A stretch of 64,000 bases of DNA from an uncultured Clostridia bacterium (GTDB lineage Bacteria > Bacillota > Clostridia > TANB77 > CAG-508), in contig CANRNR010000006.1 in NCBI GenBank assembly GCA_947632035.1, forward strand, positions 376-64,375, written 5' to 3'. A program made the position numbers and the translations under genes. Positions 8,730-44,543 of this stretch are shown here, piece after piece (the first letter of the stretch is position 1; every line of letters begins with the position of its first letter). Below the pieces are notes generated by a model. The model searched no databases. It was not told where the DNA came from and worked only from the letters and a program-made list of their open reading frames with translations.

Positions 8730-8804
8730 GTGTAGTTTACCTCCATACAAAAACAATAAAAAATAATATAAAACATAGTTTTAAAGTTTATATTTATATA
8801 TATA

Positions 8805-24103: not shown

Positions 24104-24340
24104 TTATGGATTCATAGTATCATTTAATTGATTTTTCAAATCGTTAATATCATTTAGCTTATTGTTCATTACCTGATTAGTTCTTTTTTCTGAGTTTTTA
24201 GCTGCATCTATTACACCATTGTTTCCAAGTACTACTGTTATACTTACTGATGCTAAAATTAAAAGTACTATTATTGTTACAGTAAGTGCAATTATTGTTA
24301 CACCTTTTGTATTTTGTTTATTTAACATTTTGTTATTCAT
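24104..24340 (-). CDS. Small (78 aa) protein with a prepilin-like N-terminus that lacks Glu5
   Basis: The ATG at 24340 is preceded by AAAGGAGAAAAGAGAA, so the longer start in the ORF track (24439) is unsupported. The sequence is MNNKMLNKQNTKGVTIIALTVTIIVLLILASV... The KG/VTIIA segment resembles the class III signal KGFTLIE. Confidence 0.55.
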   Translation of the reverse strand: MNNKMLNKQNTKGVTIIALTVTIIVLLILASVSITVVLGNNGVIDAAKNSEKRTNQVMNNKLNDINDLKNQLNDTMNP

Positions 24341-24533
24341 TTCTCTTTTCTCCTTTGTTACCTTTTTTAGTATTCTCCATTGTGCTTCAATATGTTCATA
24401 TTTGATTTTATTATACATAAATCTAATACTATATGTCAATAATCTATATTGTTTGAGATATTATTGGAAAATTATATTATCATATAATCATATAATTTAT
24501 ATATTTTTCATATTTTCTATATTTTCTATATTT

Positions 24534-27465: not shown

Positions 27466-30400
27466 CTATTTTAATATTCTTTTCTTAATAACAATTGCGC
27501 TTACTGCTACTATTGCTACTATTACTATGCCTAATCCAATGTATAGGTAGTGTGTACCAAATGGTGGTAAAATAACTACATTTTCTGCTTTACTTGCATC
27601 TGGTTCTGCTGGTTCTGCTGTTGGGTCTTGATTTCCTTGTATTGAGTATGCCATTCTTCTACCTACTGTATTTGAAATTGATACTATTTCTGCAATGTTA
27701 TCATATGATAAATCATCTGATGTGTTTTCTGAGGTTATTGTTTGTGTTAATATTAGTTTTGTATTTGCTACGCTACTATTTACATTTCCGCTTCCTACTG
27801 GAACTAAATCTTTCTTCAATGAATCTGTAGTAATAATTGTATTATATTTTCCGTTTATTTTTTCTTCTTGCAATTTTGCATTTACATATCCATTTGCACT
27901 AATATCTGATTGAGTAATTTGGTTCCAATTCCATGTTGCATTTTGATCTTTTATAAATTTCAAATTATTTGGTACATAGTCTAAAGTTAAGTCTGCTGAT
28001 GTCTTTACAATATTATCTTTATTAGCTACTTTTCCTATATAGTAGAATGATGTTTCATTGTAGTCTTCTTCACCTATATTTGTAACTGTCATGTCATATG
28101 TTATTTCTATTGTTGCTCCATGCATTATTTCTTCGTCCATTGTTACTTGGATTAATCCTTTATTACCAGTTACCTTTGTTGCTACTCTATCTAATACTGC
28201 TTGTCTAAAGTCATTGTATCTTGTGTAATCACTATATACTCTTTCTGGATTAGATGCATTTGGTCCTACTGTATCATATTCTGTATTGTTTTTCATATCA
28301 TTTATATTGTAGCTTTCTTTTGGTTGCCAGATTAGATCTTCTACACTTTGTGTTGCATCAAATAATACTGTTCTATCTGCAAGTGTTATTTTTATATTGC
28401 TTACTTTCTTGTCTAATTCTAATCCTGCTTTTGGTCTTTCTTCTAATCCGAAGTCTAAGTTTTGTATTACATAGTTTCCATTATATTCATTTCCATTAGC
28501 ATATTTCATATCGTCTGAATTGTTGCTTTCTTTATTGCTTCCTACTGAAAACTCTCTGTTATACTCTACTTCTACTCTTATTACACCTGTTTCTGCTGTC
28601 ATTTCTTCATATTTAACAGTTCCATCTGCATTCTTTTTGCCGTATGCTTGTTCTTCTGCCATAGTGTTTGTTACACTATGTGCGTATTTATTATTTACGC
28701 CTTCTCTTATGCTCCAAATGTCTTTTGCATCTGATACTCTTAATCCAAATTCATCTGCTTTAGCAATATCATAGCCATATGTAGCTGATTCATTTTGTCC
28801 GTTTAAATCTGTATATCCTACATATCCTAGTACGTCGTCACCACTAATATCTGTTCTTCCGTTTTGGTCTATTTTTGCTCCTGTAGATAAATTCATTTGA
28901 TAGCTTGTTGATTTATAGTCTTGTGCATTGTATATTTCTTTATTAAAAGCTGTTCCTCCGTATGTAAATTTTACTATATAATCTCCTGGTATATATCCTT
29001 CAATTTCATATTCTCCCAATACTCGTGTTGTAGCTGTTGCATCTCTAAATTCTCCACTTGCAAGATCATATATTTTTGCTACATTTGGATCTACTGTTAC
29101 TGTTCCATCAGGTGCTTTAGTTACTTCATGTAATTCTACTCGTATGCCTTCTACTCCTACTTCACCCTCTTCTTTTAAACCATTTCCTATAAGTGCATTT
29201 GTATCACCTGGTGAATATGTTCTCTTGTCTTCCCATACTGTACCATTTATTTTTCTTGTTAAACTGTTATCTGCATATATTCTAATTTCTTTTGCTCTAT
29301 CTGTATCGTCTTCAAAATTATGCTCATAAATTTGTTGTCCTTGTGGTGTTGATTGTATTGCTCTTAATGTAGCATCATTAAAGTTACCTGGGTTAGAATC
29401 CTTATCTATTATACCAGCATGGTCATTTGAAGATTTTGTAATTCCGTTTGGTAATACTTGTCCATTATTGTACCATGTTGAGTATCCATTTACTTCTGCA
29501 ATATTTTTCTTTGAACTATTTTCATCATTATCTAGAAGTAGGCTATAATCTGAAGCTCTTCCTAATTTAAATGTTAAGTAGATATATCCAGTTCCTCCTG
29601 TTGATAACTTGTTGTCTTTTAATCCATTGATATAAATTGTCTTATATCCTAAGTTTCTTAGTTCATCATTATATCTTGTATTTTCTGAATACATTCCAGT
29701 ATCACTTGATTGTACTGGTTTATATTTGTCATTATTTGTTGCATAACTTTCTTTTCTATAAAGTTCGTTTGCTCCATTTAAACCATTTTCTTCTATAATT
29801 TTTAAGTATTCTTTATCACTAACATTATTTATTTTTCTATCATCTTGTTCTCCTTTGTACATTACCCATGACATATTAGGCATAAATACATAATCTTCAT
29901 CATAGTAATCTACTACTTCATCTACTTGTGCTAGTAATGATGCTGTATTTCTAATTGATAATTTATATGTAACATATACATCTAATCTCTTACCTTGTGT
30001 ATTTTCTAAATCCACCTTAGTATCTGCTGGGTATAATTCTCTATTATATGTAGGTGAATAGTATGCTGCATAATCTGAAATTCTCGCACTAATTTCCCAA
30101 TATCTTTCATCATCTTCGTCATCACCATTGTATGTATATGTTTGTGTTTGTCCATTTATTGTTAATGCTGCTTTATATACATCTTTTGTAAGTGATAAGT
30201 CGTTTTGTGATCTTCTTACTAAACCTAAGTTTATATAATTTGCTCCACCATCAAGTAATGTATAATGATAAATGTTAATAGTAACTTCTACCTCTTTATA
30301 TGTTCCATCTGGTTGTAAAACTTGCTTAACATATGTAGAATGTTCTTCTGAATCTAAGTTATTAGTAAATTGGTTTAAAGTCAAATAGTTATCATATGTA

Positions 30401-33111
30401 CTAGTATCTTCACTACTTTGTGGTTTAGTATATGCTGACATTTTACAATCTTCAATAAATTGTAATTTCTTAGCAGTTTCTACATTACCATTTACTATTC
30501 TTAGATATATATTTCTTAATTCTTGATCATTAGGGAATCTATAGCTTCCTGGTGTAATTCCATCTCCCATAATAAACTGTTTAATTGCCTCAGTTACTAT
30601 ACCTTCTTGATATTGATTAGTTTCTATTCCTTGTTCATCATATAAATATCCATCTAATAGTTGTTTTGATCTATCGTAATAATATTTTCCATCTGTTCCT
30701 AAAGTATAACCCATTAAATCTAATCTACTAAAGGTTGTGTTATATGTATCTTGAAGCAATCCTAATGAATTAGTTGTTACATAGTTTTCTGGGTATGACT
30801 CAATTGTTCCAAATCTGTTATCATATGCAGTTTTTTCACTATTTTTTTCTGTTGCTTTTGAAGTTCTTTGCCATGCATCTGTATTATACAATCCGCTATT
30901 AATCATATCTTCTATATTATAATAATTAGGTTTGTTTTTGTCTATGTTTCCTTCTACATCTATATTTGTTAAATAATCAGTTGGCATATATATTTGTCCA
31001 TCATATTCGAATTTAACATAGTATTTTCTCATTGGGTCTAGCCCTCTAAATTCATATTTACCATTTTCATCTGTATATGTTGGGTTTATATATGCATACA
31101 TATTTGAAGCTGTTTTTCTACTTGTATTTATTGGCCAAGCTAATTCGTTAGTATCTGCAAAATATAGTGTTACTTTTATATTTTTAAGACTTATATCTTC
31201 AGAACCTGGAATATCAGTTGTATTACGTCCATCACGTAAGCTTTCTTTTCCTACTCCAGCATCCTCCCATACATTTCCACCTAAGTTAAATGAAAAGTCA
31301 TAAAAATCATATACCTCATAGTCATCATCATCATCGTCATCGTCATTATCATCATCTCCTGGTGGTGGAGGTGGTGGTGGTGTATCATCATCATCTTCTG
31401 GTGGTGTTGGAATTGAAGCATTTAAATCTAATTCTTGTTCATAAAGTAATCTATTTGCATCTGGTATCATTACTTCTTGTTGATCTGTTGAACTAATTGA
31501 AACATTTATTTTACATCCATAAGCTGTTTCATCAACAACTTTTGTTCCATAATGCCCTGCAACATGATCCCAGCTATATCCATCATTTGAATCTGGCTTT
31601 GTAGTTGTTGTTATTGTAGTGCCGTTTTCATCAGTTCTTTCCCAATATTCGTCTATCCAATTGTCTTTGTCTTCAACTGTTTTGGTATGCTTTGTAGTTC
31701 CATCATAGCAATCTCCAGTATGCTCGTATACTTTTTCATTAGCAGTTAGTGTAGCTGTATATTGTTTACCTTCTAATATTGCTGCTTCACCAGATGCTAA
31801 CATATATTGAAATTTTACTTTTACAGAAATAGATGTTACACATTGTTCTTCTGAAGTTTTTCCAACATTTGGGTTACTTATTGTTACGAAAAACTGTTGT
31901 CCTGATTTTGGATATACTTGTTTATTAGTATCTACTAGTTCACTTCCTGATGGAGTGAAGAATTGTAAAGAGCTTCCTCCTCCGTATCCTCCTGTTGCAC
32001 CATCTCCAAGCATAATACTTGAAATTGGAAGTTGTCCTATACAAGCTCCAAATGAGTTATATCCCATTACATACATTTCTGTAATTCCTGCAAAAGATTT
32101 TCCTCCATCAAAAGCTGTTCCATCATCAACATAGGTCATACTAAATGGTCCAAAGGTATAATTTCCTGTTGCCATATCAACTCTAGGGAAAACTCCTGAT
32201 GATGTGTTTTGTGGATTTAATCCACCATTTGCTTCTACTTTATTATGATATTCTGCATAACGAAGTGCTTCGTTTGTAAGTCCATCTGCAGCACCTCCTA
32301 CTTCAGGGTTAGGATATTCTTCTGTTCCTGTACCTACAATTGCGCTTCCATCTGCACTTTCATAACCACCTGTTGCTTCATTAAATACTTGTTTTCCTCT
32401 TAAATTCCAGATTGCATATTGTTTTTCTTCTGTCCATTGTCCTTTTGGATCAGATGATACTATATATGCCATAGCTGGACTTAATTTTATTACTTCTTTT
32501 GTAGAAAATAGTGGTGGTGTTACTATTTTTGATGGCATTGTTACTTTAGTATGCTCTACTAATTCTACTTTTTCTACTGTGTTATAATAGTCAGTCTCAC
32601 CTGTATTGGTATTATACCAAGGTGTTTGTGAGATTTCTTTCCATGTTATTTTAGCATGTCCATATTCTGGTAGTTTTGTATTTGTAGTACATTTTGATTC
32701 TTTAAACTGTGATGCTAAACCTTGTAATTCAGTTTTTGTAAAATATCCTCCACCAGATTTTCTAGTTCTTAATCCTGGTGTTACATGTCCTTGTTTTGGC
32801 TCTATACAATAAACTTCGTAACCTTCAATTAGAGGAGCTAAATCACCTGGTCCTAATTCTAAACATGGTAAATCTTTTGCACCTGCTGGAACATTAAACT
32901 TTGAATATGGGTCGCCAGATACTAATGTACCTGCACCATCTGGTACTATTTCTACGCCATATTCATCTTCATTTGGTACAATTTCTACGTCAGGATCGGT
33001 AACAGCTTTTATTCTATCAATTGTTAATTGTAATATTCCTACTATAATTAATGTTACCATTATCATTAGTATACTTACTCTAAAGATTTGTTTCATCTTT
33101 TTAGTTCGCAT
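27466..33111 (-). CDS. Giant (1881 aa) surface protein, copy A: signal-anchor, candidate thioester domain, Asp/Pro linker, SdrD-B/Cna-B-like and DUF11-like stalk, C-terminal ILPPFG + TM + KKRILK
   Basis: SD AAAGGAGAGGAGG upstream, 22 nt after the stop of 33134..38419. Motifs: EVYCIEP (Cys102) and EEKQYAIWN (Gln231); GGNVWEDAGVGKESLRDG...YTDENGKYEFRGL; NGTVWEDKRTY...GEYEIEGYIPGDYIVKFTYGG; HGATIEITYDMTVTNIGEEDY. Confidence 0.85.
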   Translation of the reverse strand: MRTKKMKQIFRVSILMIMVTLIIVGILQLTIDRIKAVTDPDVEIVPNEDEYGVEIVPDGAGTLVSGDPYSKFNVPAGAKDLPCLELGPGDLAPLIEGYEVYCIEPKQGHVTPGLRTRKSGGGYFTKTELQGLASQFKESKCTTNTKLPEYGHAKITWKEISQTPWYNTNTGETDYYNTVEKVELVEHTKVTMPSKIVTPPLFSTKEVIKLSPAMAYIVSSDPKGQWTEEKQYAIWNLRGKQVFNEATGGYESADGSAIVGTGTEEYPNPEVGGAADGLTNEALRYAEYHNKVEANGGLNPQNTSSGVFPRVDMATGNYTFGPFSMTYVDDGTAFDGGKSFAGITEMYVMGYNSFGACIGQLPISSIMLGDGATGGYGGGSSLQFFTPSGSELVDTNKQVYPKSGQQFFVTISNPNVGKTSEEQCVTSISVKVKFQYMLASGEAAILEGKQYTATLTANEKVYEHTGDCYDGTTKHTKTVEDKDNWIDEYWERTDENGTTITTTTKPDSNDGYSWDHVAGHYGTKVVDETAYGCKINVSISSTDQQEVMIPDANRLLYEQELDLNASIPTPPEDDDDTPPPPPPPGDDDNDDDDDDDDYEVYDFYDFSFNLGGNVWEDAGVGKESLRDGRNTTDIPGSEDISLKNIKVTLYFADTNELAWPINTSRKTASNMYAYINPTYTDENGKYEFRGLDPMRKYYVKFEYDGQIYMPTDYLTNIDVEGNIDKNKPNYYNIEDMINSGLYNTDAWQRTSKATEKNSEKTAYDNRFGTIESYPENYVTTNSLGLLQDTYNTTFSRLDLMGYTLGTDGKYYYDRSKQLLDGYLYDEQGIETNQYQEGIVTEAIKQFIMGDGITPGSYRFPNDQELRNIYLRIVNGNVETAKKLQFIEDCKMSAYTKPQSSEDTSTYDNYLTLNQFTNNLDSEEHSTYVKQVLQPDGTYKEVEVTINIYHYTLLDGGANYINLGLVRRSQNDLSLTKDVYKAALTINGQTQTYTYNGDDEDDERYWEISARISDYAAYYSPTYNRELYPADTKVDLENTQGKRLDVYVTYKLSIRNTASLLAQVDEVVDYYDEDYVFMPNMSWVMYKGEQDDRKINNVSDKEYLKIIEENGLNGANELYRKESYATNNDKYKPVQSSDTGMYSENTRYNDELRNLGYKTIYINGLKDNKLSTGGTGYIYLTFKLGRASDYSLLLDNDENSSKKNIAEVNGYSTWYNNGQVLPNGITKSSNDHAGIIDKDSNPGNFNDATLRAIQSTPQGQQIYEHNFEDDTDRAKEIRIYADNSLTRKINGTVWEDKRTYSPGDTNALIGNGLKEEGEVGVEGIRVELHEVTKAPDGTVTVDPNVAKIYDLASGEFRDATATTRVLGEYEIEGYIPGDYIVKFTYGGTAFNKEIYNAQDYKSTSYQMNLSTGAKIDQNGRTDISGDDVLGYVGYTDLNGQNESATYGYDIAKADEFGLRVSDAKDIWSIREGVNNKYAHSVTNTMAEEQAYGKKNADGTVKYEEMTAETGVIRVEVEYNREFSVGSNKESNNSDDMKYANGNEYNGNYVIQNLDFGLEERPKAGLELDKKVSNIKITLADRTVLFDATQSVEDLIWQPKESYNINDMKNNTEYDTVGPNASNPERVYSDYTRYNDFRQAVLDRVATKVTGNKGLIQVTMDEEIMHGATIEITYDMTVTNIGEEDYNETSFYYIGKVANKDNIVKTSADLTLDYVPNNLKFIKDQNATWNWNQITQSDISANGYVNAKLQEEKINGKYNTIITTDSLKKDLVPVGSGNVNSSVANTKLILTQTITSENTSDDLSYDNIAEIVSISNTVGRRMAYSIQGNQDPTAEPAEPDASKAENVVILPPFGTHYLYIGLGIVIVAIVAVSAIVIKKRILK
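31316..31410 (-). repeat. Low-complexity coding tract for the Asp/Pro linker (PTPPEDDDDTPPPPPPPGDDDNDDDDDDDDYEVYDFYDF)
   Basis: Runs of (tca/tcg)n and (ggt/gga)n on the plus strand. Confidence 0.8.
32419..32808 (-). other. Candidate thioester-domain core in copy A (Cys codon 32806-32808, Gln codon 32419-32421)
   Basis: YC(I)E plus ..KQYAIW.., 129 residues apart, match the [YF]C[ILV][EDQ] and (T)QxA[IV]W motif pair of TIE/TQXA thioester adhesins. Confidence 0.5.
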
Positions 33112-33133: not shown

Positions 33134-36100
33134 TTAGTTTACTTTCTTTGTTAATACTCGTTTTTTGATTTCATATATTCCAAATGCTAATACTGCTAAT
33201 ATTACTACTATTAAAATTGATCCTACTACTAATTTACCAGTTACTACTGATAACACAATATCTGCTTTTGATATATCATCTTCTTGTGATATATTATTTC
33301 CTGCTACTGAATCTAAATCTTCTCTTCCTTCTTCATTATAGCTTTCATATATTTCTGCATTATTGTTTATAATGTTTCCTATGTTTTTATCTGTTATATT
33401 AAAGCTTAATACTAATGTTACTTCTTTGCTTTCTCCAGGATTTATTATTGTATTTGCTAAGCTTGTGTTAAATACATCTTGATTGTTGCTTGCTAAATAC
33501 CAATCACTATTTACTTCTGACATAAACATTGCATCTTCTGGTAAGTAATCTATTAATTTTCTTGCATATCCTGGTATTTTTCCTTCGTTTGTTACTCTTA
33601 TTTTGTATTCTACTATTATGCTACTCTTGTTTACGTTGTTTCCTAATATTTCTACTTTTGCTAATTTTTCATTATTATATGGTGTTACTCTTGTTCCTAT
33701 TGTTGGAGTTGTTAATGTTATTTTACTTACATATTTATCTAGTCTTAAATCAAATTTTTCTGCTACATATAAACCTATATCGATATCTCTTACATTTGAA
33801 TCTGTAATCTTTACTATGTTTGTAATACCTGCAACTCTCTTTTCTCCATCAAATACAGTACTTATATCTATTACATCTGAATTTAATCCTTCATCTACAC
33901 CTTCTGCTTTATATTTAGTTAGACTGTAGCTTGATGCATCATATAAGAATAATACTAAGTATTCTCCTTGTGGAATATTTGCAAATTCGTATGTTCCATT
34001 ATTTGATGTTGTAGTTCTTTTTGGTTCGTTTGTATTTATATCGTTTACAACCATGTTGTTTACTTTATTTAATAATACAACTGGTATATTGCTTAAAAGT
34101 TTTTCTGTGTCATCACGTTTTCCATCTTTATTTTCATCTAACCATGCAGTTCCTGCTATTTTATATTTAGGTGTTGTTGGCGATGTAGTTGTTCCACCTT
34201 GATTTGGGTTTGATGATGGTTCTTGGTGTAATTCTTCATTATATTCTATTGTGTTTGTTACTGTGTTTGTTTGTACTTCTTCAAAATATTGAGCTGAAAC
34301 TTTTACTGTATTTTTAACTTGCTTGTCTTCTTGATTTAATACTTTTGCTCTTACAGTAATAGTTATGCTTGCACTTGCTCCAACAGGTAGTTGTGAAATA
34401 ACAGTTCTAGCTGTATTATTACTTATATTAGTAATATGTTGTACACCTGAATCAGTTGTATAAGATAATTCTGTAAATAAAAGTTCATCAGGTATAACAT
34501 CTTCTATCTTAATATTTTCTGCAATTATGTCTCCTATATTTTTGATGTCAAATTTATATGTAATTGTTTCTCCTTCTTTTACATATCTTGGTGTTGTTGT
34601 AAGTTCAGATATCTCTAGTTTTACTTTTGCTGATTCATACTCTAAAGTATTTGAATAATGTTCTTCTCCTTCAGCACTTTTTGCAATTGCTCTCATAGAA
34701 CTTACTCCGTCAAATTCTTTTCCTTCTAATGTTATACGTATTACTTGTTCTGTAGTAGTTAGAGTGTCTATTTTTACTTGTAATGTATGTGTATTCTTAT
34801 CATAACTAATAGTATTTCTACTTGTTACTCCATTTTCTTGTTCTAATGTTGCTTCTTTATAATTAGTTCCTGGTAATAATGGAATATTTACTGTTACATC
34901 TTTTAATTCACTTTCGCTTCCTATATAACTTATATTAACTCTATATTTTGTTTCTTGTCCTTTTAATAGTGGTGTACTATCTTCAATGCTTCCTATTAAT
35001 TGTAATTTTATTTCTCCATCTTTTATTGTATTTTTATATTCATTTGAAGGAATACCATTTTGCATTTGGTCTCCGATGATAGTAACTTTGCTTGTAAATT
35101 CAGTTTCTGGTAGTTTACCATCTTCTAGTTTTTTAACTGTTCCATCTTCGTCATCTATATATATGTTTCCATCACTATCTTTATAAGTTTTTGGCTTTGG
35201 AATTGAATTATCTATTTTAATATAATAGCTTTTTGTTATAGTTTCTCCTGGTTTTATTGTTCCTATATCGATTGTTTTTTCATCAGCTACCTGCTCAGAA
35301 AATCCCATATTATATGTATAAACTGAAAATTTTGCATATTCTGGTTTTGGAATATTTAATTTTGCATTTGTAACTGCCATGTCTCCTGTATTTGTTACAG
35401 TTACATTCATTTTTACTGTTTGTCCTTCTCTTATTACATCTGCTGTAGATTCTAGTTTTACATCTAATTCTGGTCCTTCACCAGTTGTTAAGGCTATTAC
35501 TGGTGACTCTTTTGTTTCTTCTAAGCTTCCTACTTCTGATGTGTTTGTATAATATATTTTATACATCTCATAGCTACTATTATTATAACTTAAGTTTGCT
35601 GGTACTTCTATATCATAGCTAAATGCTATTACTTCTTGTTCATTCATTTCGTAGCCTTCGTTTGCTACTATCATGTATGATTTTGCTTCTTTGCTGAAGT
35701 TTTCTGTCCATCCATTTTCTGCATCTTCTAAGTTTGAATTTGCATCTACTTTATTTGAATAATATACTTTATAATTTTCTAAACCTGTTACTTTTATTTC
35801 TGAATTTATTACTGCATCAAATGTTGAACCTAATTCTTCTTCTGAATCTATTTTTCTATTATCCTTTGATGGTAATCTTCCTAATATTTTTAAGTCTGTT
35901 ATTTTGTTTCCATAATTATTTACTACTGTTCCTGTTACTGTTGCTACTTTTTTATCACTATATGTTTCTATTTGTACTTCTTCTGTTTTATCTGATATTG
36001 ACATTACTTCTTTACTATTTTGAGCATAATTTGCTATTGCATTGGCTGATACTACTCCAGTTGGTGCTACAAAATTTACTTTTGTTTCTACTTGTCCTTG

Positions 36101-38419
36101 TTTTTCTTTTACAACATCATTTTCATTTATGTAAATCATTTCTATCTTATTTTCATTTGATGGTGTTAATGTTTTTACTGTTATATCTGCATTTAATAAT
36201 ATAATAGTTCCTTTATATTCTGCATCTAATGTATAGTCTGATTGTGTTCCTTCTAATATAATATTAATTACAGGTACACCATCTTCTTTTTCTACATTAA
36301 CACTTTTTATTTTTAATCCATTATTCATTAAAATATTTTTACTATTTAATTTTACGTCACTTATATATGATGGAAATCTTATTTTTAATGTTGGATTTTT
36401 GTATAATGCATAATTTATACTTGATGTATCTAATACTGCTCTTATTTCTACATCTTTATTTACTACTACTGTTGATAAATTTTCTGGATTTATGTTTATT
36501 TCTGCTTTATTTGTTACTTCTGTTAATTTTATATCACTTGTTATTATTTTTGAATCTATGACTGTTCTTTCTGTAGATTGTAAAGCTTTATTTATTGTAT
36601 CTTCCATTGTTGTATTTGCTGTTTCTTCTTTTATTTCTTCATTTTCTACATTATTGTTTCCTTCTTTTACTTCTTCGTTTTTTATACCACTTCTTACATC
36701 TTTTGTTTCATCAATAGTTAATTTTGGTATAGTAATTTTTTGAATTGCTTCTGTTTGTATTTTAGTTAATTCTTTCATTTGATCTTTTGTATAATTGTTA
36801 TCTACTGAAAATGCTTTTGTTAATGTTAATACTAATCTACCTTCTGATTTTGGAGTTGAAGTTTCTATTAGTAATTCACTTAATTTTTGTTTCTCTATAT
36901 TTAATATATAACTTCCATCTTCATCATCAAAAGTATTCATCAAAGTATCTTCTGGTAGGTTATTTATTACTGCTCTTGTTTCATCACTTACGATAATTCC
37001 TATAACTGTTCCATCTTTTTTACTTACTTTTATTAATCCGCTATCTCCTAGAAGTTTTATAAAGTTTGTTTTAGATATTTTTATTTGTTTTACATATATG
37101 TTGTTTTCTGCTGAATATAATTCTCCTTCATATTCTACTTTGTCATTGTTTATTTGATATTCTATACTACTATTTAATACTTTATCATATATTGGTGTTA
37201 TATATGTTATGTCATACATTGTTTCTTGTTTATTTTCCTTCTTATCATAGTTTGCATATAAATATCCTTTGCTTATTTCTTTTGGACTTTCTACATTTAT
37301 ATCTGTTATTTTTCCTATTGGTCCTTCTACTACATATGATCCTTTATTTTCTATTTCTACTGTGCTACTTTTTCCGTCATATGTTTCTACATTTGCTGTT
37401 GCTACAATGTTTCCTGTTATTGCTTTATCATTTACTTGTCCTGCTTTTATTTCATCTTCTGTTAATTTTCCTGCTTCTGCTTCTTTTAATTTATCGTTTA
37501 CATAATTATATACTTCTTCTCCTGTATATACGCTTGTTACTATATATTCGTCTTTTCCTTCTTCCCAATCTATTTTTCCTTCTTCGTCTTTTTCTCTTAC
37601 TGTTTCTATTATTACTTTTTGATTTTCTTTTTCATAATTATATGTTGTAGTATTTTTTTCTTCTACTTCGTCTTCTTTATTTGAATTTAATACTACACTT
37701 ACTCTTTCTGCTTCTTGGTTATTTATTGTTGGTACTTCTACTTCTAAGTTTGTTTTTGCTATTGGGGCTTTGTTATCTTTTATTCCTAAGTTAATTTTGC
37801 TCTGAAAAATAACACCATATTCTTCTCCTATATGGTATGGTAAATATTTATTTAATTTTCCGTCTATTTCTACTTCTGATTCAACTTGCCAGCCTATTTT
37901 ATTTACTACTTCTTTTTCTATTTTTTTCTCATTTCCATTTCCATTTATGTAATCTGCTGTAAATAATGTTTTGACTTCTTTTGAGAAATAGTCGCTATCT
38001 ATTTTTTCACTTTTTGCAAATGTTATTGGTAATTCTACTACATATTCTTCTCCACTTTGCATTTGCTCTAAATAGATTTTTTCATCTTCTATTTTTTGTA
38101 TATGTTCAGATTTTATTTGGCTACTATCTAGCTTGAAGTTGCTGTTTTGGAATTCTATTACTCCATCTTTTAAATAGCCATTTTCTTTTACTTTAAGGTT
38201 TATGTATAATTTTCCTCCCTTTGACACTTCAAAGGTTTTGTCATGTGATTCTCCTTCTTCTAAGTAACTATTAAATTCTACATTAGAGTTATTTGTTTTA
38301 CTATTTTGGGTAGGTAATGTACTTGCTAATGCAATTACTTGTGAACCTACATTTAACAAATTACCACTAAGTAATATTATTAGCATAATAGTTGCTAGTA
38401 TTTTTCTTCTCATTTTCAT
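33134..38419 (-). CDS. Giant (1761 aa) surface scaffold protein, copy A: signal peptide, family-specific N-terminal region, DUF11 repeats, SdrD-B-like Ca-binding domain, C-terminal SVVTG + TM + basic tail
   Basis: SD TAGGAGG. Signal MKMRRKILATIMLIILLSGNLLNVGSQVIALA. DUF11 signatures GQTVKMNVTVTNTGDMAVTNAKLNIP and GETITYKFDIKNIGDIIAENIKIEDVIPDELLF. YKIAGTAWLDENKDGKRDDTE...NGTYEFANIPQGEYLV. DLDSVAGNNISQEDDISKA. Confidence 0.85.
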   Translation of the reverse strand: MKMRRKILATIMLIILLSGNLLNVGSQVIALASTLPTQNSKTNNSNVEFNSYLEEGESHDKTFEVSKGGKLYINLKVKENGYLKDGVIEFQNSNFKLDSSQIKSEHIQKIEDEKIYLEQMQSGEEYVVELPITFAKSEKIDSDYFSKEVKTLFTADYINGNGNEKKIEKEVVNKIGWQVESEVEIDGKLNKYLPYHIGEEYGVIFQSKINLGIKDNKAPIAKTNLEVEVPTINNQEAERVSVVLNSNKEDEVEEKNTTTYNYEKENQKVIIETVREKDEEGKIDWEEGKDEYIVTSVYTGEEVYNYVNDKLKEAEAGKLTEDEIKAGQVNDKAITGNIVATANVETYDGKSSTVEIENKGSYVVEGPIGKITDINVESPKEISKGYLYANYDKKENKQETMYDITYITPIYDKVLNSSIEYQINNDKVEYEGELYSAENNIYVKQIKISKTNFIKLLGDSGLIKVSKKDGTVIGIIVSDETRAVINNLPEDTLMNTFDDEDGSYILNIEKQKLSELLIETSTPKSEGRLVLTLTKAFSVDNNYTKDQMKELTKIQTEAIQKITIPKLTIDETKDVRSGIKNEEVKEGNNNVENEEIKEETANTTMEDTINKALQSTERTVIDSKIITSDIKLTEVTNKAEININPENLSTVVVNKDVEIRAVLDTSSINYALYKNPTLKIRFPSYISDVKLNSKNILMNNGLKIKSVNVEKEDGVPVINIILEGTQSDYTLDAEYKGTIILLNADITVKTLTPSNENKIEMIYINENDVVKEKQGQVETKVNFVAPTGVVSANAIANYAQNSKEVMSISDKTEEVQIETYSDKKVATVTGTVVNNYGNKITDLKILGRLPSKDNRKIDSEEELGSTFDAVINSEIKVTGLENYKVYYSNKVDANSNLEDAENGWTENFSKEAKSYMIVANEGYEMNEQEVIAFSYDIEVPANLSYNNSSYEMYKIYYTNTSEVGSLEETKESPVIALTTGEGPELDVKLESTADVIREGQTVKMNVTVTNTGDMAVTNAKLNIPKPEYAKFSVYTYNMGFSEQVADEKTIDIGTIKPGETITKSYYIKIDNSIPKPKTYKDSDGNIYIDDEDGTVKKLEDGKLPETEFTSKVTIIGDQMQNGIPSNEYKNTIKDGEIKLQLIGSIEDSTPLLKGQETKYRVNISYIGSESELKDVTVNIPLLPGTNYKEATLEQENGVTSRNTISYDKNTHTLQVKIDTLTTTEQVIRITLEGKEFDGVSSMRAIAKSAEGEEHYSNTLEYESAKVKLEISELTTTPRYVKEGETITYKFDIKNIGDIIAENIKIEDVIPDELLFTELSYTTDSGVQHITNISNNTARTVISQLPVGASASITITVRAKVLNQEDKQVKNTVKVSAQYFEEVQTNTVTNTIEYNEELHQEPSSNPNQGGTTTSPTTPKYKIAGTAWLDENKDGKRDDTEKLLSNIPVVLLNKVNNMVVNDINTNEPKRTTTSNNGTYEFANIPQGEYLVLFLYDASSYSLTKYKAEGVDEGLNSDVIDISTVFDGEKRVAGITNIVKITDSNVRDIDIGLYVAEKFDLRLDKYVSKITLTTPTIGTRVTPYNNEKLAKVEILGNNVNKSSIIVEYKIRVTNEGKIPGYARKLIDYLPEDAMFMSEVNSDWYLASNNQDVFNTSLANTIINPGESKEVTLVLSFNITDKNIGNIINNNAEIYESYNEEGREDLDSVAGNNISQEDDISKADIVLSVVTGKLVVGSILIVVILAVLAFGIYEIKKRVLTKKVN

Positions 38420-38708: not shown

Positions 38709-41700
38709 TTACTTAAGTACAGTTTTCTTTATAGTTACAACACTAACAGCTAATATTGTTATGATGAATATAGCAAGTCCAATGTATACATAATGTTCAC
38801 CAAATGGTGGAAGTATTGTTACATCTTCTGCTCTGCTTGCGTCTGGTTCTGCTGGTGCTGCTTTTGGATCTTGATCTCCTTGTATTGAGAATGCCATTCT
38901 TCTTCCTACATCATTTGAAATTGATACTATTTCTGCCATGTTCTTGTACGATAAATCGTCTGCTGTGTTTTGTGATGTTATAGTTTGTATTAATATTAAT
39001 TTTGTTCCAACTTTACTATCATTTTCATTTTCGCTGCTTCCTAATGGAATTAATGGTTTATTTAATGCAGTTGTCATAAGGATTGTATTATATTTTTTAT
39101 CTATTGCATTATATACATCGTTATTTACATATTGATGTGCTTCTTCTTGAGTAATTGTTCTCCATTTCCAATCAGTATTGTTATTAGCTTCTCTATATTG
39201 TAAGTTGTTTTCTACATAGTCTATTACTTCATTTGCTGTTGTTTTTACAATCGTATCCGTGTCGTCTATTCCACCTCCTACAATTGTATGTTTGTTTGTT
39301 ATCCTTCCTAGATAGTAGAAATAATTATCCTTGTAATCTTCTTCACCTATATTTGTAACTGTCATGTCATATGTTATTTCTATTGTTGCACCATGCATTA
39401 TTTCTTCATCCATTGTTAATTGTATTAGTCCTTTATTGCTATTTACCATTGTGTCAACCCTGTTTAATACTGCTTGTCTAAAGTCGTTGTATCTTGTGTA
39501 ATCACTATATACTCTTTCTGGATTAGATGCAGTTGGTCCTACATTATCATATGTTGTTTCATTTTTCATGTTATTTATATTGTAGCTTTGTTTTGGTTGC
39601 CAAATTAAATCTTCTACACTTTGTGTTGCATCAAATAGTACTGTTTGATTTGAAAGTGTTAATTTTACGTTACTTACTTTCTTGTCTAACTCTAATCCTG
39701 CTTTTGGTCTTTCTTCTAATCCAAAGTCTAAATCTCTTATGTGATATTCTCCACTATTATTGCCTTCTGTAAATTCTCTGTTATATTCAACTTCTGCTCT
39801 TATTACACCTGTCTCTGCTACAATTGTTGGATATAAATATTCAGATGATGTTGCCATAGAATTTTTTATTTCCTTAGTATATTTATCCTCATAAAATCTT
39901 GCTCTTCCTTGTCCATAAAATGGATATCCCTGAATTGCTCCTAAAAGATCTTTTGCATCTGATACATTTAATTTTTTACCAGAACTATCTACAAAATTAT
40001 CTGCTCTATCTATACTGTAACCATATCCTGCTGATTCATTTTGAGTATCAAGCTCTGGATATATATATCCTAAATAATGGATAGGATTAATGTCATTAGA
40101 ACTAATATCTGTTGTTGCATTTTGGTCTATTTCATCAAGCTTATATTCTCCTGCTCCTTTAATATGAAGATATCTTTGATAACTTGTTGATTTATAGTCT
40201 TGTCCATTATAATCTTTACAATCTTCTCCTCCGTATGTGAACCTTACTATATAATCTCCTGGTATATAGCCTTCAAAGCTATAGTATCCATCTATATTTT
40301 TACCATCTATTGTTTCGTTATGTGTTTTTATTGGCTCGCTCGTCCAATCTCCATTTTCATATCTTTTAGCTGGTGTATCATTAGTCTTACGATTAATTAC
40401 TTCATATAAATTTACAGTAATTCCATTTATTCCTACTTCACCGTCTTCTCTTAAGCCATTTCCTATAAGGGCATTTGTTTCTTCTGGTGAGTAGGTTCTC
40501 TTATCTTCCCATGCTACACCACTTATTTTTCTTACTAGATTTGAATCTTCATATATTTTAATTCCTCTTGCTCTATCAGTATCATCTTCCATGTTGTTTT
40601 CCCATTTATCGTTATTTATTTTACTGTTATCAAAGTTACCTGATGTAGAATCTCTATCTATTATTCCTGCATGGTTATTTGAAGACTTTTCAATTCCGTT
40701 TGGTAATTTAGTTCCATCATTATACCATGTAGTGTAACCATTTACTTCTGCTATGTTTTGTTTAGAAGTAATTTGATTATCTAATAATAGTTTATTATTA
40801 TTTTGATTTCTTCCTAGTTTGAAGGTTAAGAAAACATAACCATTTTCACCGGTTTGTAATTTTCTGTCTTTCAAACCATTAATATGTGTTGCTTTATATG
40901 TTTCACCATCTATTGTTAAATCCCATCTTGTGTTTTGTGAATATTTTCCTTCTTCAGGTGTATATTTTCCTCCAGAAGCTACTGTTTCATCTAGATAAAT
41001 TGGTTTATATTTTGGATTATCTGCTGAATATCCCTCGTTAGCATATGAAATATTTTTACCATCTATTATTTTTAAATATTCTTCATCTGAAACATTTATC
41101 ATTTTTCTATTTTCTACGTTGTCCTCGCTTTGTCCCCTATACATTACCCATGACATTTCTGGCACTAAACTTTCATAGTCTGCATCATAGTAATCTACAA
41201 TTTCATCTATTTGTGCTTGCATACTTTGTGAAGAGTTTCTAACTGCTATTTTATATGTAACATAAATGTCTAATCTCTTGTTTGCATTATCATTATTGCC
41301 TAAATTTGAGTTTGCATCAGATGGGTATACTGATCGTTCATACATGCTATCATAGTAGTTTCCATAATCAGAAATTCTTGCTCCAATATCCCAATATGGA
41401 TAGTCTTTATCTTCTGTATCTCCTCTATCATCATAATCATAAACTTGTGATTGTCCATTTATTGTTAAGGCTGCTTTAAATACGTCTTTTGTAAGTGATA
41501 TGTCTGATAGTGGTCTTCTCCATAGTCCTAAGTTTACATAAGCATTGTTTGGATATATAGTTTCATATGCACTTTCTCCTAATAAGTCATCAATATCTGT
41601 CCATAAATCATCTAATATATCCCAGAATGAAGAATTCTTATCACTACCTAATTCTATACCGTATGAATTTCCATCTTGATCTGTAAATGAACCTCCTCCT

Positions 41701-44543
41701 GAACCTTTTCTATAAACCCTATCATTTATACTGAAGGTTTCTGACATAGGATATGCATCATATGTATCCTTTATTGCTGATGTTATTGATTTTGATGATG
41801 CTTTTGTATATGCTTTAATTTTACAATCTTCTATGAATTGTAATTTTTGCGCCGTTTCTTTAGGATTATTACTATTTTTAGCTATGTTATAATAAATTCG
41901 TTGCATGTCTTGATCAGTTGGGAATTTTCTATTGTTATTAATGTAATTTCTTACTGCTTCTGAAATCTTACCATTAATACAAATTCCTTGTTCATTATAT
42001 CTATCAATTAAGTCTCCTAAATCGTCTTGTGTAAAGCTTGCATTATAATCTCCTGATAGCCATCCATTATTATTGGTAAATAATGAATTTATTTTATTTC
42101 TTATTTTATAGTTTTCAGGATATGAACCAATTGATGCAAAGTTTTCATCGAATTCATTTCTAGAGCCTTTTACTGTTGTTACAGTTTCTTCAGTTGCTTT
42201 TGAAGTAATTTTCCAAAATGCTGCTCTTATTTCTTCTTCAAGATTTTCATCAGTAATCATTTCCTTTGCACTATTGTAAGTCTTATCTCCTACTTTTAAA
42301 TAATCTGTAGCAGTAAATATTTGACCATCATATTCAAAAGTCATATAATATCTTTTCATTGGGTCTATTCCCATAAAGCTATAATGACCATAATCATCTG
42401 TATATGTTGGATTTATATGTGAATATATATCTCCTTCTCCTAAGAAGTTATATATTGGTGCTAATTTTCCATCTAATGTATATAATGTTACTTTAACATT
42501 TTTTATGCCTCTTTCTACACTTGCATCTCTTAAACCATCTCGTACTGATTCCTTTCCACCAGACTGGTCTTCCCATACATATCCTCCTAGATTCATATAT
42601 AATTGAGGTGGATCATACGGTGTTGGTGTCGGCGTTGGCGGTGGTGTTGTTGGCGTTGATGGCGTCGTTGGTGTTGACGGTGTCGACGGTGTCGATGGTG
42701 TCGATGGTGTTGATGGTGTTGATGGTGTCGACGGTGTCGATGGTGTTGATGGTGTTGATGGTGTTGATGGTGTTGATGGTGTTGATGGTCTTGATGGTGT
42801 CGATGGTGTTGATGGTGTTGATGGTGTTGATGGTGTCGATGGTGTTGATGGTGTTGATGGTGTCGATGGTGTTGATGGTGTTGATGGTCTTGATGGTGTC
42901 GATGGTATCGATGGTGTTGATGGTGTTGATGGTGTTGATGGTCTTGATGGTGTTGATGGTGTTGATGGTCTTGATGGTGTTGTTGTTGGAGTTGGTGTTG
43001 GTGTTGGCGTTGGCGTGCCTCCACCTGTTGAGAATATTTCTATAGTTTCTGTGTATTCAACTATACATACATCTGGTATTGATATTGGTTGTAATGTTTC
43101 ACTACCTTTCTTACTTATTTTTGTTGTTACAACACATGTTTGACCCTTTTCATCTTTGCAATATTTTGTTACGGGTACTGTTTTCGTATCATGATCATGA
43201 TCCATTTTTCCATCATTATTTTCATCATGAGTACAATCTACCTCTACTTCTTGTGACTCTTGATGTGAATGACTAGTTTCACCATGTTTAGTAGTTACTG
43301 TTTTCTCATATTGATTTCCTTCATAGTTTGTTTTTACTCCATAAGCTAAAGTGTATTTAAATGTTACCAATATAGATATACTGGATATATAATTACTTCC
43401 ATCATCTTTAACATTAGTATTAGGGTTATTAAAATCTACATAAAATGCTTCTCCTGAAGCAGGATATTGCTGCGCATTAGGATCTGAACCTGATTCATCT
43501 GGATTAAAGAAATGAGTTTCACTTCCACCTCCATATTGAAGACTTCCACCTAGTTTTCTTTCAGAGCCATCAGCCGCATGACCTATAACTTCTACACTAG
43601 CCATACCTCCATGTGAGCCACTACCACCGAAGTTACTTCCTGAATCATTATATCCTATACTAACAGGTCCTGCTCTATATGATCCATTTCCATCTGTCCC
43701 ACCATTTAAATCTCCCTGTAAAAAAGATATTCCTCCTGTAAAGTCTTGTATGTTTAGTCCTTCGTTTTTGATTACAGAATCATGAAAACTTGCATATTCT
43801 TTAGCTGCTGTGCTATAAATATTGTCTGTTCCATGAGTTGTCTCTATATTTTCTCCATGATTTATTTCCCAAAAAGCCTTTTGCTTTTCAGCAGTCCATT
43901 CAGTACCACCATCAGTATATATGTATGCTTCTGCAGGTGAGATGGTTTCTGTACTACTTATTGTATAATAAGCTGGTGAATAGCTAGTTTTTGTGCCATC
44001 TTTTTGGTCTTCACATTTATGTCCATCATGAATTGTACATTCAGAACTCTCTGTCATAGACTTTTTTCCATCTCCCATCTTGTTTTGCAACTCCGTGTAT
44101 TCTTCTACAGAAAATCCTCCTCTATATGAATTGAAACGCATATTAGGGCCATTGCAATATACATCTGCTCCTTCTACTAATGGTGCCATATTATCTTCTC
44201 CTAGTTCATAACTAAGAATTCCCTCTTGCTCAACTCCGTTTTCATCTTTCCATGTTGATGTTTTTAATGTTAATCCATTCTCCTTGTCATAATTTTCTGG
44301 TATTGTATTATATTTATACGTATTTGGATCTTCTCCACTAGTTCTTTTTCCACTTAGTCCTGAGGGCTCCATGTTGTAACCGCCACCTGAATCAGATGTA
44401 CTACTTATTGTTGCTATACCTGAATTTTTATCAGAAGTAGCTACAGAAAAAATTACTAATTGAAATAGACCTATCATTATAAACGTAGTAATTATTGTCT
44501 GTATTATCGTCCCTAGAATTTTACTTTCTTTTTTATATGGCAT
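38709..44543 (-). CDS. Giant (1944 aa) surface protein, copy B: signal-anchor, divergent candidate thioester domain, (S/T)P-repeat linker, SdrD-B/Cna-B-like and DUF11-like stalk, C-terminal ILPPFG + TM + KKTVLK
   Basis: SD AAGGAGGGAG, 16 nt after the stop of 44560..49782. Motifs DVYCNGP (Cys130) and AEKQKAFWE (Gln221). The C-terminal ~900 aa are collinear with 27466..33111 and in blocks near-identical to it. Confidence 0.85.
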   Translation of the reverse strand: MPYKKESKILGTIIQTIITTFIMIGLFQLVIFSVATSDKNSGIATISSTSDSGGGYNMEPSGLSGKRTSGEDPNTYKYNTIPENYDKENGLTLKTSTWKDENGVEQEGILSYELGEDNMAPLVEGADVYCNGPNMRFNSYRGGFSVEEYTELQNKMGDGKKSMTESSECTIHDGHKCEDQKDGTKTSYSPAYYTISSTETISPAEAYIYTDGGTEWTAEKQKAFWEINHGENIETTHGTDNIYSTAAKEYASFHDSVIKNEGLNIQDFTGGISFLQGDLNGGTDGNGSYRAGPVSIGYNDSGSNFGGSGSHGGMASVEVIGHAADGSERKLGGSLQYGGGSETHFFNPDESGSDPNAQQYPASGEAFYVDFNNPNTNVKDDGSNYISSISILVTFKYTLAYGVKTNYEGNQYEKTVTTKHGETSHSHQESQEVEVDCTHDENNDGKMDHDHDTKTVPVTKYCKDEKGQTCVVTTKISKKGSETLQPISIPDVCIVEYTETIEIFSTGGGTPTPTPTPTPTTTPSRPSTPSTPSRPSTPSTPSTPSIPSTPSRPSTPSTPSTPSTPSTPSTPSTPSTPSTPSTPSRPSTPSTPSTPSTPSTPSTPSTPSTPSTPSTPSTPSTPSTPTTPSTPTTPPPTPTPTPYDPPQLYMNLGGYVWEDQSGGKESVRDGLRDASVERGIKNVKVTLYTLDGKLAPIYNFLGEGDIYSHINPTYTDDYGHYSFMGIDPMKRYYMTFEYDGQIFTATDYLKVGDKTYNSAKEMITDENLEEEIRAAFWKITSKATEETVTTVKGSRNEFDENFASIGSYPENYKIRNKINSLFTNNNGWLSGDYNASFTQDDLGDLIDRYNEQGICINGKISEAVRNYINNNRKFPTDQDMQRIYYNIAKNSNNPKETAQKLQFIEDCKIKAYTKASSKSITSAIKDTYDAYPMSETFSINDRVYRKGSGGGSFTDQDGNSYGIELGSDKNSSFWDILDDLWTDIDDLLGESAYETIYPNNAYVNLGLWRRPLSDISLTKDVFKAALTINGQSQVYDYDDRGDTEDKDYPYWDIGARISDYGNYYDSMYERSVYPSDANSNLGNNDNANKRLDIYVTYKIAVRNSSQSMQAQIDEIVDYYDADYESLVPEMSWVMYRGQSEDNVENRKMINVSDEEYLKIIDGKNISYANEGYSADNPKYKPIYLDETVASGGKYTPEEGKYSQNTRWDLTIDGETYKATHINGLKDRKLQTGENGYVFLTFKLGRNQNNNKLLLDNQITSKQNIAEVNGYTTWYNDGTKLPNGIEKSSNNHAGIIDRDSTSGNFDNSKINNDKWENNMEDDTDRARGIKIYEDSNLVRKISGVAWEDKRTYSPEETNALIGNGLREDGEVGINGITVNLYEVINRKTNDTPAKRYENGDWTSEPIKTHNETIDGKNIDGYYSFEGYIPGDYIVRFTYGGEDCKDYNGQDYKSTSYQRYLHIKGAGEYKLDEIDQNATTDISSNDINPIHYLGYIYPELDTQNESAGYGYSIDRADNFVDSSGKKLNVSDAKDLLGAIQGYPFYGQGRARFYEDKYTKEIKNSMATSSEYLYPTIVAETGVIRAEVEYNREFTEGNNSGEYHIRDLDFGLEERPKAGLELDKKVSNVKLTLSNQTVLFDATQSVEDLIWQPKQSYNINNMKNETTYDNVGPTASNPERVYSDYTRYNDFRQAVLNRVDTMVNSNKGLIQLTMDEEIMHGATIEITYDMTVTNIGEEDYKDNYFYYLGRITNKHTIVGGGIDDTDTIVKTTANEVIDYVENNLQYREANNNTDWKWRTITQEEAHQYVNNDVYNAIDKKYNTILMTTALNKPLIPLGSSENENDSKVGTKLILIQTITSQNTADDLSYKNMAEIVSISNDVGRRMAFSIQGDQDPKAAPAEPDASRAEDVTILPPFGEHYVYIGLAIFIITILAVSVVTIKKTVLK
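42620..43020 (-). repeat. About 400-nt coding tandem repeat (9- and 15-nt units) encoding the TP/(S/T)PS(T/R)PS linker
   Basis: Plus strand reads (ggtgttgat/ggtgtcgat/ggtcttgat)n. The protein reads TPTPTPTPTPTTTPSRPSTPSTPSRPSTPSTPSTPSIPS...TPTTPPPTPTPTP. This is the local G+C maximum of the window. Confidence 0.9.
43881..44156 (-). other. Candidate thioester-domain core in copy B (Cys codon 44154-44156, Gln codon 43881-43883)
   Basis: It aligns with the copy-A motifs (APL(I/V)EG..VYC; EKQ.A.W), but the residues after the Cys (NG) depart from the usual [ILV][EDQ]. Confidence 0.4.

Follow-up and report, generated by a model that had tools for sequence, protein, structure and literature searches.

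Thioester domains (TEDs) of Gram-positive surface proteins hold the Cys that enters their thioester bond in a β-strand, within the motif [YFL]CΦζ (Walden et al. 2015, PMC4450167; Miller et al. 2018, PMC6194298). A separate, later strand (β-strand Q) with the weak motif ΦQζΦΦ carries the Gln that completes the bond, and this Cys and this Gln are the only residues universally conserved among TEDs (PMC4450167, PMC6194298). A further motif, TQxxΦW (formerly TQxA[IV]W), is located on the central helix α2, where the part played by its Gln and Trp is limited to hydrogen bonds with the backbone of the Cys; this Gln is dispensable for bond formation, its mutation is tolerated and the motif is not universal (PMC4450167, PMC6194298). 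Here we analyse a 64,000-nucleotide stretch of DNA from an uncultured Clostridia bacterium (contig CANRNR010000006.1; hereafter referred to as the window), in which a giant surface protein, protein A, is encoded on the minus strand (1,881 residues; 27466-33111, as given by the list of open reading frames (ORFs) and their translation). We propose with moderate confidence that the N-terminal head of A is a new, very divergent TED-like domain, not so far annotated, in which Cys102 would be bonded to Gln545.

The closest described relatives of such a head would be the Class II TEDs. In these, an inserted β-sandwich of roughly 75 residues separates helix α3 from the P/Q hairpin, which returns into the N-terminal lobe (PMC6194298), and the Cys-to-Gln spacing is 171 residues in SaTIE, 204 in EfmTIE86 and 188 in TIEpLS20 (PMC6194298, PMC8092201). 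TIEpLS20, the adhesin of pLS20, is a Class II TED backed by mutagenesis (PMC8092201). The TED fold combines a β-barrel with a three-helix bundle. Solved TEDs share pairwise identities down to 12% (PMC4450167), and divergent TEDs overlooked by Pfam have already been documented (Monzon et al. 2022, PMC9210967). The head of A would thus not be the first of its sort, but a new variant of TED-like head.

Motif order and conservation in the head

The preliminary description of this locus had placed an N-terminal Cys-Gln thioester warhead at 32419-32808, an interval whose ends are the codons of Gln231 (32419-32421) and Cys102 (32806-32808). The plus-strand translation of the interval is filled with stops, so the feature belongs to the minus strand, as do all features of A given below. 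The translation bears out both motifs, YCIE with Cys102 and KQYAIW with Gln231, separated by 129 residues, and both are retained in paralog C, a second giant protein of the window (1,944 residues; 38709-44543, minus strand, identified by blastp against A). In 20,000 composition-preserving shuffles of protein A, [YF]C[ILV][EDQ] followed 60-260 residues on by Q.A[IV]W occurred at a frequency of 5e-5; the motif pair is therefore real and no chance pattern.

A full-length search returned 27 relatives of A, and when the head alignment was run exhaustively as a profile, 43 representative clusters were recovered from 1.84 billion proteins. A word-indexed homology search gave no match with either the head alone or the head alignment as query; as full-length relatives exist, we take this to be a limit of the index and not absence. 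The Cys102 and Gln231 motifs are both nearly invariant in about 45 relatives that share less than 50% identity. Conservation was counted over 31 diverse members that span the whole head and share less than 50% identity, with Cys102 counted only in the 28 sequences that cover it. Cys102 is kept in all 28, preceded by Tyr or Phe and followed by Ile, Ala or Thr and then by Glu or Gln. Lys230 and Gln231 are each present in 30/31, so that the Lys that had been reported in place of the usual Thr before the Gln is correct and a family-wide trait, and Trp235 is present in 28/31. The single member that departs at position 231, P0064, has Asn there and retains Cys102 and Gln545.

Gln545 (31477-31479) is found in 31/31 and is the sole Gln present in every member. 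The family consensus around it, xQ[D/E][L/V][M/L/A]..D[A/G].R, fits ΦQζΦΦ and includes Arg554, nine residues after the Gln and conserved in 30/31. A further Gln, Gln398 (31918-31920, in NKQ398VYPKSGQ), is conserved in 28/31, inside a strongly conserved D..xQxYP..G.xF block; P0053, P0057 and P0058 replace it with Ala, Lys and Glu, respectively, yet retain Cys102, Gln231 and Gln545. The other Cys residues are less conserved than Cys102 (Cys141 in 13/31, Cys533 in 25/31). With Cys102 and Gln545 kept throughout and both Gln231 and Gln398 losable, the pattern matches the universal Cys and Gln pair of TEDs. All three TED motifs are found in order: [YF]C[IAT][EQ] in a predicted strand, KQxAΦW in a predicted helix and xQ[DE]ΦΦ in a predicted β-hairpin. 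The architecture is that of a secreted protein with this head at its N-terminal tip, followed by SdrD_B/CnaB-like modules and a C-terminal anchor.

The chain of A begins with a putative signal peptide or membrane anchor (residues 1-36, MRTKKMKQIFRVSILMIMVTLIIVGILQLTIDRIKA; 33004-33111), in which a basic N terminus is followed by a hydrophobic run and a predicted cleavage site. The N-terminal lobe of the head (residues 84-305; 32197-32862), delimited by AlphaFold secondary structure and by hhalign, comprises the Cys strand, a lineage-specific insert and three helices. The candidate thioester Cys, in EVYC102IEP, conforms to [YFL]CΦζ and, in alignments with bona fide TEDs, is paired with their Cys, and K230-Q231-Y-A-I-W235 (in EEKQ231YAIWNL; 32407-32424) is the likely counterpart of the helical TQxxΦW, as judged from helix prediction and hhalign. 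Between helix 3 and the hairpin lies an inserted region (residues 306-528; 31528-32196), assigned as a β-sandwich from the alignment and from model strands with a predicted local distance difference test (pLDDT) score of about 85-94 in model 1 (see below). The long β-hairpin (residues 529-566; 31414-31527), delimited from model 1 and conservation, carries the ΦQζΦΦ-like DQQ545EVM and Arg554 (DQQ545EVMIPDANR); the tryptic peptide with Gln545, the proposed thioester-forming residue, is INVSISSTDQQEVMIPDANR. In paralog C the corresponding positions are Cys130 (VYC130NGP; 44154-44156), the helix equivalent Gln221 (EKQ221KAFW; 43881-43883) and the Gln545 equivalent Gln485 (TLQPISI; 43089-43091), all on the minus strand.

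The β region of the head also contains a variable sub-insert rich in Cys and His, at about 31528-31800 in A (residues 440-528). It is seen in relatives P0003 and P0004-P0017, with SHEHYNKHSHTCHHYSEVDGETVHSGCHPKDCYSC of P0004 as an example. P0003 has about 15 Cys in this sub-insert and A has only Cys468 and Cys533; the sub-insert may form a knob that binds metal or is held by disulfides.

Predicted fold and candidate partners of Cys102

Two AlphaFold models were computed. Model 1 covers residues 37-572 of A (10-sequence alignment), and model 2 covers the N-terminal lobe only (33 sequences) and so omits the Gln545 hairpin that would complete the lobe. KQ231YAIW is placed on the second of three predicted helices in both models, with pLDDT 82-95. 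In model 1, Cys102 falls in a strand (pLDDT below 50), and a helix (model residues 233-259) is followed by β-strands and then by a long hairpin (493-530 in model numbering; pLDDT 69-90 over model residues 501-530). This predicted order fits a Class II insertion, albeit one far longer than the roughly 75 residues described. When model 1 was compared with 350,542 PDB chains using Foldseek, the top three matches were Class II TEDs (6fwy_A, 6fwy_C and 6fwv_B), and generic β-sandwich proteins ranked after them.

Profile-profile comparison with hhalign used sets of plasmid-derived bona fide Class II TEDs, one pLS20-like and one SaTIE-like with TQxxΦW. The family N-lobe aligned with the SaTIE-like N-lobes over 97 columns with a score of 27.8 (P = 5.9e-4), and in this alignment the Cys residues, the KQxxIW and TQxxIW motifs and the third helices are matched. 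The maximum score among 40 column-shuffled nulls of this comparison was 15.5. Against the pLS20-like set the scores were 21.7-21.9 (P = 0.007-0.008), and negative-control alignments scored 9.5-14.4. These alignments suggest, but do not establish, remote homology of the family N-lobe to TEDs.

Several results weigh against a TED-like head. The Pfam models TED (PF08341) and TED_2 (PF20610) and the NCBIfam TQXA/thioester models gave no match to A or to the head alone at E <= 10, the Pfam/NCBIfam scan of 33 family N-lobes and 5 distant relatives at the same threshold gave no TED, and sequence and profile searches of the PDB with the head and with alignments A1 and A3 returned chance matches only and no TED. 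The mean pLDDT is 64 for model 1 and 68 for model 2, and falls below 50 around Cys102. The Foldseek matches of model 1 to TEDs have E-values of 7e-3 to 1.8e-2, all above 0.001, with template modelling (TM) scores of at most 0.18, and model 2, the N-lobe only, gave nothing meaningful and no TED against the PDB. The two true TED sets, pLS20-like and SaTIE-like, align with each other at a score of 70.9 (P = 1.8e-11), far above the 27.8 of the family, and in the tool's own hhalign comparison of alignments A1 or A3 with A4 the scores were 21.1-22.4 (P = 0.014-0.08), with the Cys strand alone aligned. The spacing from Cys102 to Gln545 is 279-452 residues across the family (443 in A), compared with 171-204 in characterised Class II TEDs.

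How far the silence of the sequence models counts can be gauged from TIEpLS20. A search with TED/TQXA hidden Markov models had been proposed as a check of the warhead, with the lack of a significant match as grounds for refutation, and no such match was found; however, TIEpLS20 itself scores only 23.6 bits with Pfam TED (cut-off 22) and 28.8 bits with TED_2 (cut-off 27), and phmmer with TIEpLS20 as query found no solved TED in the PDB. Because this established TED barely passes Pfam and is invisible to phmmer, the lack of a TED/TQXA match is too strict a criterion to decide the matter: sequence models may barely register a genuine TED.

The strongest competing explanation is that the head is no TED and instead an unrelated or motif-convergent ligand-binding or enzymatic domain, in which Cys102 would be free, redox-active, metal-binding or catalytic and any adhesion would be non-covalent. 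The uniformly negative curated TED models and PDB sequence searches speak for it, together with profile-profile scores far under those between true TED groups and structure models of low confidence at the key sites. We nevertheless consider it possible but rather unlikely, since the invariant polar residues are Cys102, Lys230, Gln231, Gln545 and Arg554, with no His, Asp or Asn for a triad, since Cys102 lacks a fully conserved disulfide partner, and since the motif triad, its order, the secondary structure, the top Foldseek matches and the three-point hhalign alignment all favour a TED. Two specific forms of Cys102 chemistry were rejected, a Cys protease or transglutaminase because no His or Asp is invariant, and a conserved disulfide because no second Cys is universally kept.

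If the head is a TED, the partner of Cys102 has to be chosen among three Gln residues. The preliminary description had proposed a thioester between Cys102 and Gln231 of KQYAIW. Both residues are nearly invariant, and, as the Gln of the helical motif adjoins the thioester in known TEDs, Gln231 is probably near Cys102 in space (PMC4450167, PMC6194298); the family is also divergent enough for roles to have shifted, and the Lys230 before Gln231 is unusual. But the Gln of the helical motif is never the bond partner in characterised TEDs and its mutation spares the bond (PMC4450167, PMC6194298). KQ231YAIW is predicted to be helical, whereas the bonding Gln of TEDs is in a β-strand, and hhalign sets it on the TQxxIW of SaTIE-like TEDs and not on their bonding Gln. 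P0064 manages with Asn at this position, and Gln545 fits the bonding motif. Gln231 is thus probably not the thioester bond partner, and we regard a Cys102-Gln231 bond as very unlikely. The general idea of an N-terminal thioester warhead survives as the best available explanation of the head, and the bond first drawn within it is unsupported; the earlier assignment had merged TQxxΦW with the separate bonding motif ΦQζΦΦ and so arrived at what is almost certainly the wrong Gln.

Gln398, in the β-sandwich region, is likewise a very unlikely partner: its conservation within a strong block, its spacing from Cys102 (296 residues), which is nearer to that of known TEDs, and one low-confidence full-length hhalign alignment that set the Class II bonding-Gln region near this block all count for it, but it lies outside any long strand in model 1, the Val-Tyr-Pro that follows it fits ΦQζΦΦ worse than the context of Gln545 does, and P0053, P0057 and P0058 dispense with it while keeping Cys102, Gln231 and Gln545. 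The full-length hhalign alignments of the head with Class II TEDs (P = 0.011-0.056) place the Gln region unreliably, and an alternative pairing Gln545 with the bonding Gln of SaTIE was not significant (P = 0.35).

With Gln545 as the preferred partner, the head (residues about 84-566) would have a Class II-type topology, running from the β-strand of Cys102 (YCIE) through three helices, the second with KQ231YAIW, and an enlarged β-sandwich to the long β-hairpin, which would bring Gln545 (DQQEVM) back to the N-terminal lobe. During folding, the thiol of Cys102 would attack the side-chain amide of Gln545 and ammonia would leave (−17 Da), with Gln231 and Trp235 merely packing on the Cys backbone. 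An amine, typically the Lys side chain of a host or microbial ligand, could then attack the buried thioester, and the product would be an intermolecular isopeptide bond at Gln545. A stalk of about 1,200 residues, together with the Pro/Asp linker, would hold the head off the cell, with the C-terminal LPPFG, a transmembrane segment and a basic tail as the putative tether. On this reading, an uncultured gut Clostridium would display both A and C as fibrillar surface proteins of giant size.

Stalk, anchor and genomic setting

The head of A is followed by a low-complexity linker rich in Pro and Asp (residues 567-608; 31288-31413) and by the stalk (residues 609-1836; 27604-31287). The linker is poly-Asp/Pro (DDDDTPPPPPPPGDDDNDDDDDDDD) and unrelated to the low-complexity linker of C, a (PST)n tract of about 130 residues (about 42590-43060) that takes its place; unrelated linkers in paralogs suggest rapid turnover of the spacer. 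In the stalk, which had been described as Ig-like, only faint Pfam matches of SdrD_B/CnaB type occur, while relatives show SdrD_B, SpaA and NOMO1-like matches. The Ig-like assignment is thus weakly documented by sub-threshold SdrD_B and CarboxypepD_reg matches, and the stalk sequence gave no match in the PDB.

The C terminus of A (27469-27570) is laid out in three parts like a sorting signal, with LPPFG, a hydrophobic helix and KKRILK, but LPPFG, which has no Thr, stands in place of LPXTG. The combination of ILPP[F/Y]G, a hydrophobic helix and KK(K/R)xLK is family-wide (in C at 38799-38813, minus strand), with IPPTG in one member and TPPTG in distant relatives as variants. No relevant publication emerged from a literature search for LPPFG, LPPYG and TPPTG. 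No sortase domain was detected among the scanned ORFs of at least 150 residues in the window, several ORFs having been left unscanned.

In the window, whose G+C content is 27.7%, four giant genes lie in tandem on the minus strand: D (44560-49782), C (38709-44543), B (33134-38419) and, last, A. The cluster is flanked by MreB-MreC-MreD-PBP-MinC on one side and by SpoIIE on the other. The stalks of A and C are 49% identical and their heads about 30% (blastp). The partner gene upstream of A, B (1,761 residues), and its paralog upstream of C, D, encode proteins that are 55% identical, lack Cys and contain DUF11/CLIPPER and SdrD_B domains (Pfam and sequence comparison); both end in ...SVVTGK, a transmembrane segment and KKRVL. 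The gap between B and A is 22 nucleotides. Relative P0013 (locus L021; 35% identical), on a 1.3-Mb contig, has a single B-type and A-type pair at the same position between MinC and SpoIIE; the unit is thus a conserved two-gene module, of which this window has two copies. Two distant relatives, P0021 and P0022, apparently have the B-type and A-type proteins fused in a single ORF, where a new signal peptide comes after an internal anchor. The closest relative of A is an ortholog that is 95-98% identical, from the rabbit-gut 'uncultured Clostridia' metagenome-assembled genome (MAG) GCA_947630185.1; further relatives come from gut MAGs, including Hadza samples.

Two other genes of the window are of note. 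A fifth giant (1,795 residues; 3369-8756, minus strand) has at least four SpaA/prealbumin-like domains and no C-terminal anchor, and shares a related N-terminal region with B and D. At its extreme C terminus (residues 1726-1755; nucleotides 3492-3581) lies a sub-threshold match to the Colicin_E5 ribonuclease (E = 3e-4, 21.4 bits, cut-off 25), and this giant is possibly a surface protein of the polymorphic-toxin type. A 111-residue ORF (24104-24439, minus strand), located between SpoIIE and a WG-repeat protein, has a pilin-like N terminus (NTKGVTIIALTVTIIVLLILASVSI); a Pfam scan of this ORF gave no match.

Relation to known thioester systems

Were the proposed reading correct, the range of covalent thioester adhesion would come to include giant surface proteins of commensal, uncultured gut Clostridia, and a TED lineage wholly missed by current Pfam and NCBIfam models would be added. 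Natural variants such as the Lys in place of Thr, the extra Arg and the much larger insert could help to show what tunes thioester reactivity. For motif screening, the lesson is that the Gln of TQxA(I/V)W marks the domain and not the bonding residue, and mutagenesis or mass spectrometry designs with Q231A as a 'dead' control would mislead. A literature search for a 'Class III' TED retrieved no description of one. More tentatively, and with clear doubt, the family might represent a third structural class of TED, with an enlarged β insertion bearing the Cys/His-rich knob, Lys230 and Arg554 possibly tuning reactivity, a new LPP[FY]G sorting signal and an obligatory pairing with a Cys-free DUF11 giant, together forming a two-gene adhesion module of small-genome gut Clostridia.

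The closest resemblance is to the Class II TEDs (SaTIE, 6FX6; BaTIE, 6FWV; EfmTIE86, 6FWY; TIEpLS20), which are the best Foldseek and hhalign matches of the head of A. Like them, it is the N-terminal head of a Gram-positive surface protein, with [YF]CΦζ in a predicted strand, the middle of three predicted helices bearing (T/K)QxxΦW, and a predicted β-sandwich ahead of a hairpin in which an invariant Gln stands in a ΦQζΦΦ-like context. Unlike them, the family has no significant sequence-model match, precedes its helical Gln with Lys and not Thr, and has an invariant Arg at the ninth position after the candidate bonding Gln; its inserted β region is 130-250 residues longer and holds the variable Cys/His-rich knob, and its Cys-Gln spacing is wider, as given above. 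A also differs from the Class II TIE proteins in having LPPFG and not LPXTG, in its size of 1.9 thousand residues, in being chromosomal and in being paired with a DUF11 giant.

With the Class I TEDs (SfbI, FbaB, Cpa, CpTIE and PnTIE) the head shares the same three motifs and the same proposed Cys-Gln thioester chemistry, through which Class I TEDs capture a Lys amine such as that of fibrinogen Aα Lys100 (PMC4450167). In Class I TEDs, however, only about 10 residues join helix 3 to the Gln strands, where A has its large β region, and there is an extra helix α0 (PMC6194298). The divergent clusters of Monzon et al. 2022 (PMC9210967) are linked to PF08341 by jackhmmer and comprise tens of thousands of homologs. 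By contrast, the family of A has no PF08341 link and comprises only the 43 representative clusters found here.

A more distant parallel is offered by complement C3 and α2-macroglobulin, in which a Cys-Gln thioester (CGEQ) within a helical TED covalently captures nucleophiles. There the two residues are three positions apart and the fold is unrelated, whereas the Cys and the candidate Gln of A are separated by hundreds of residues.

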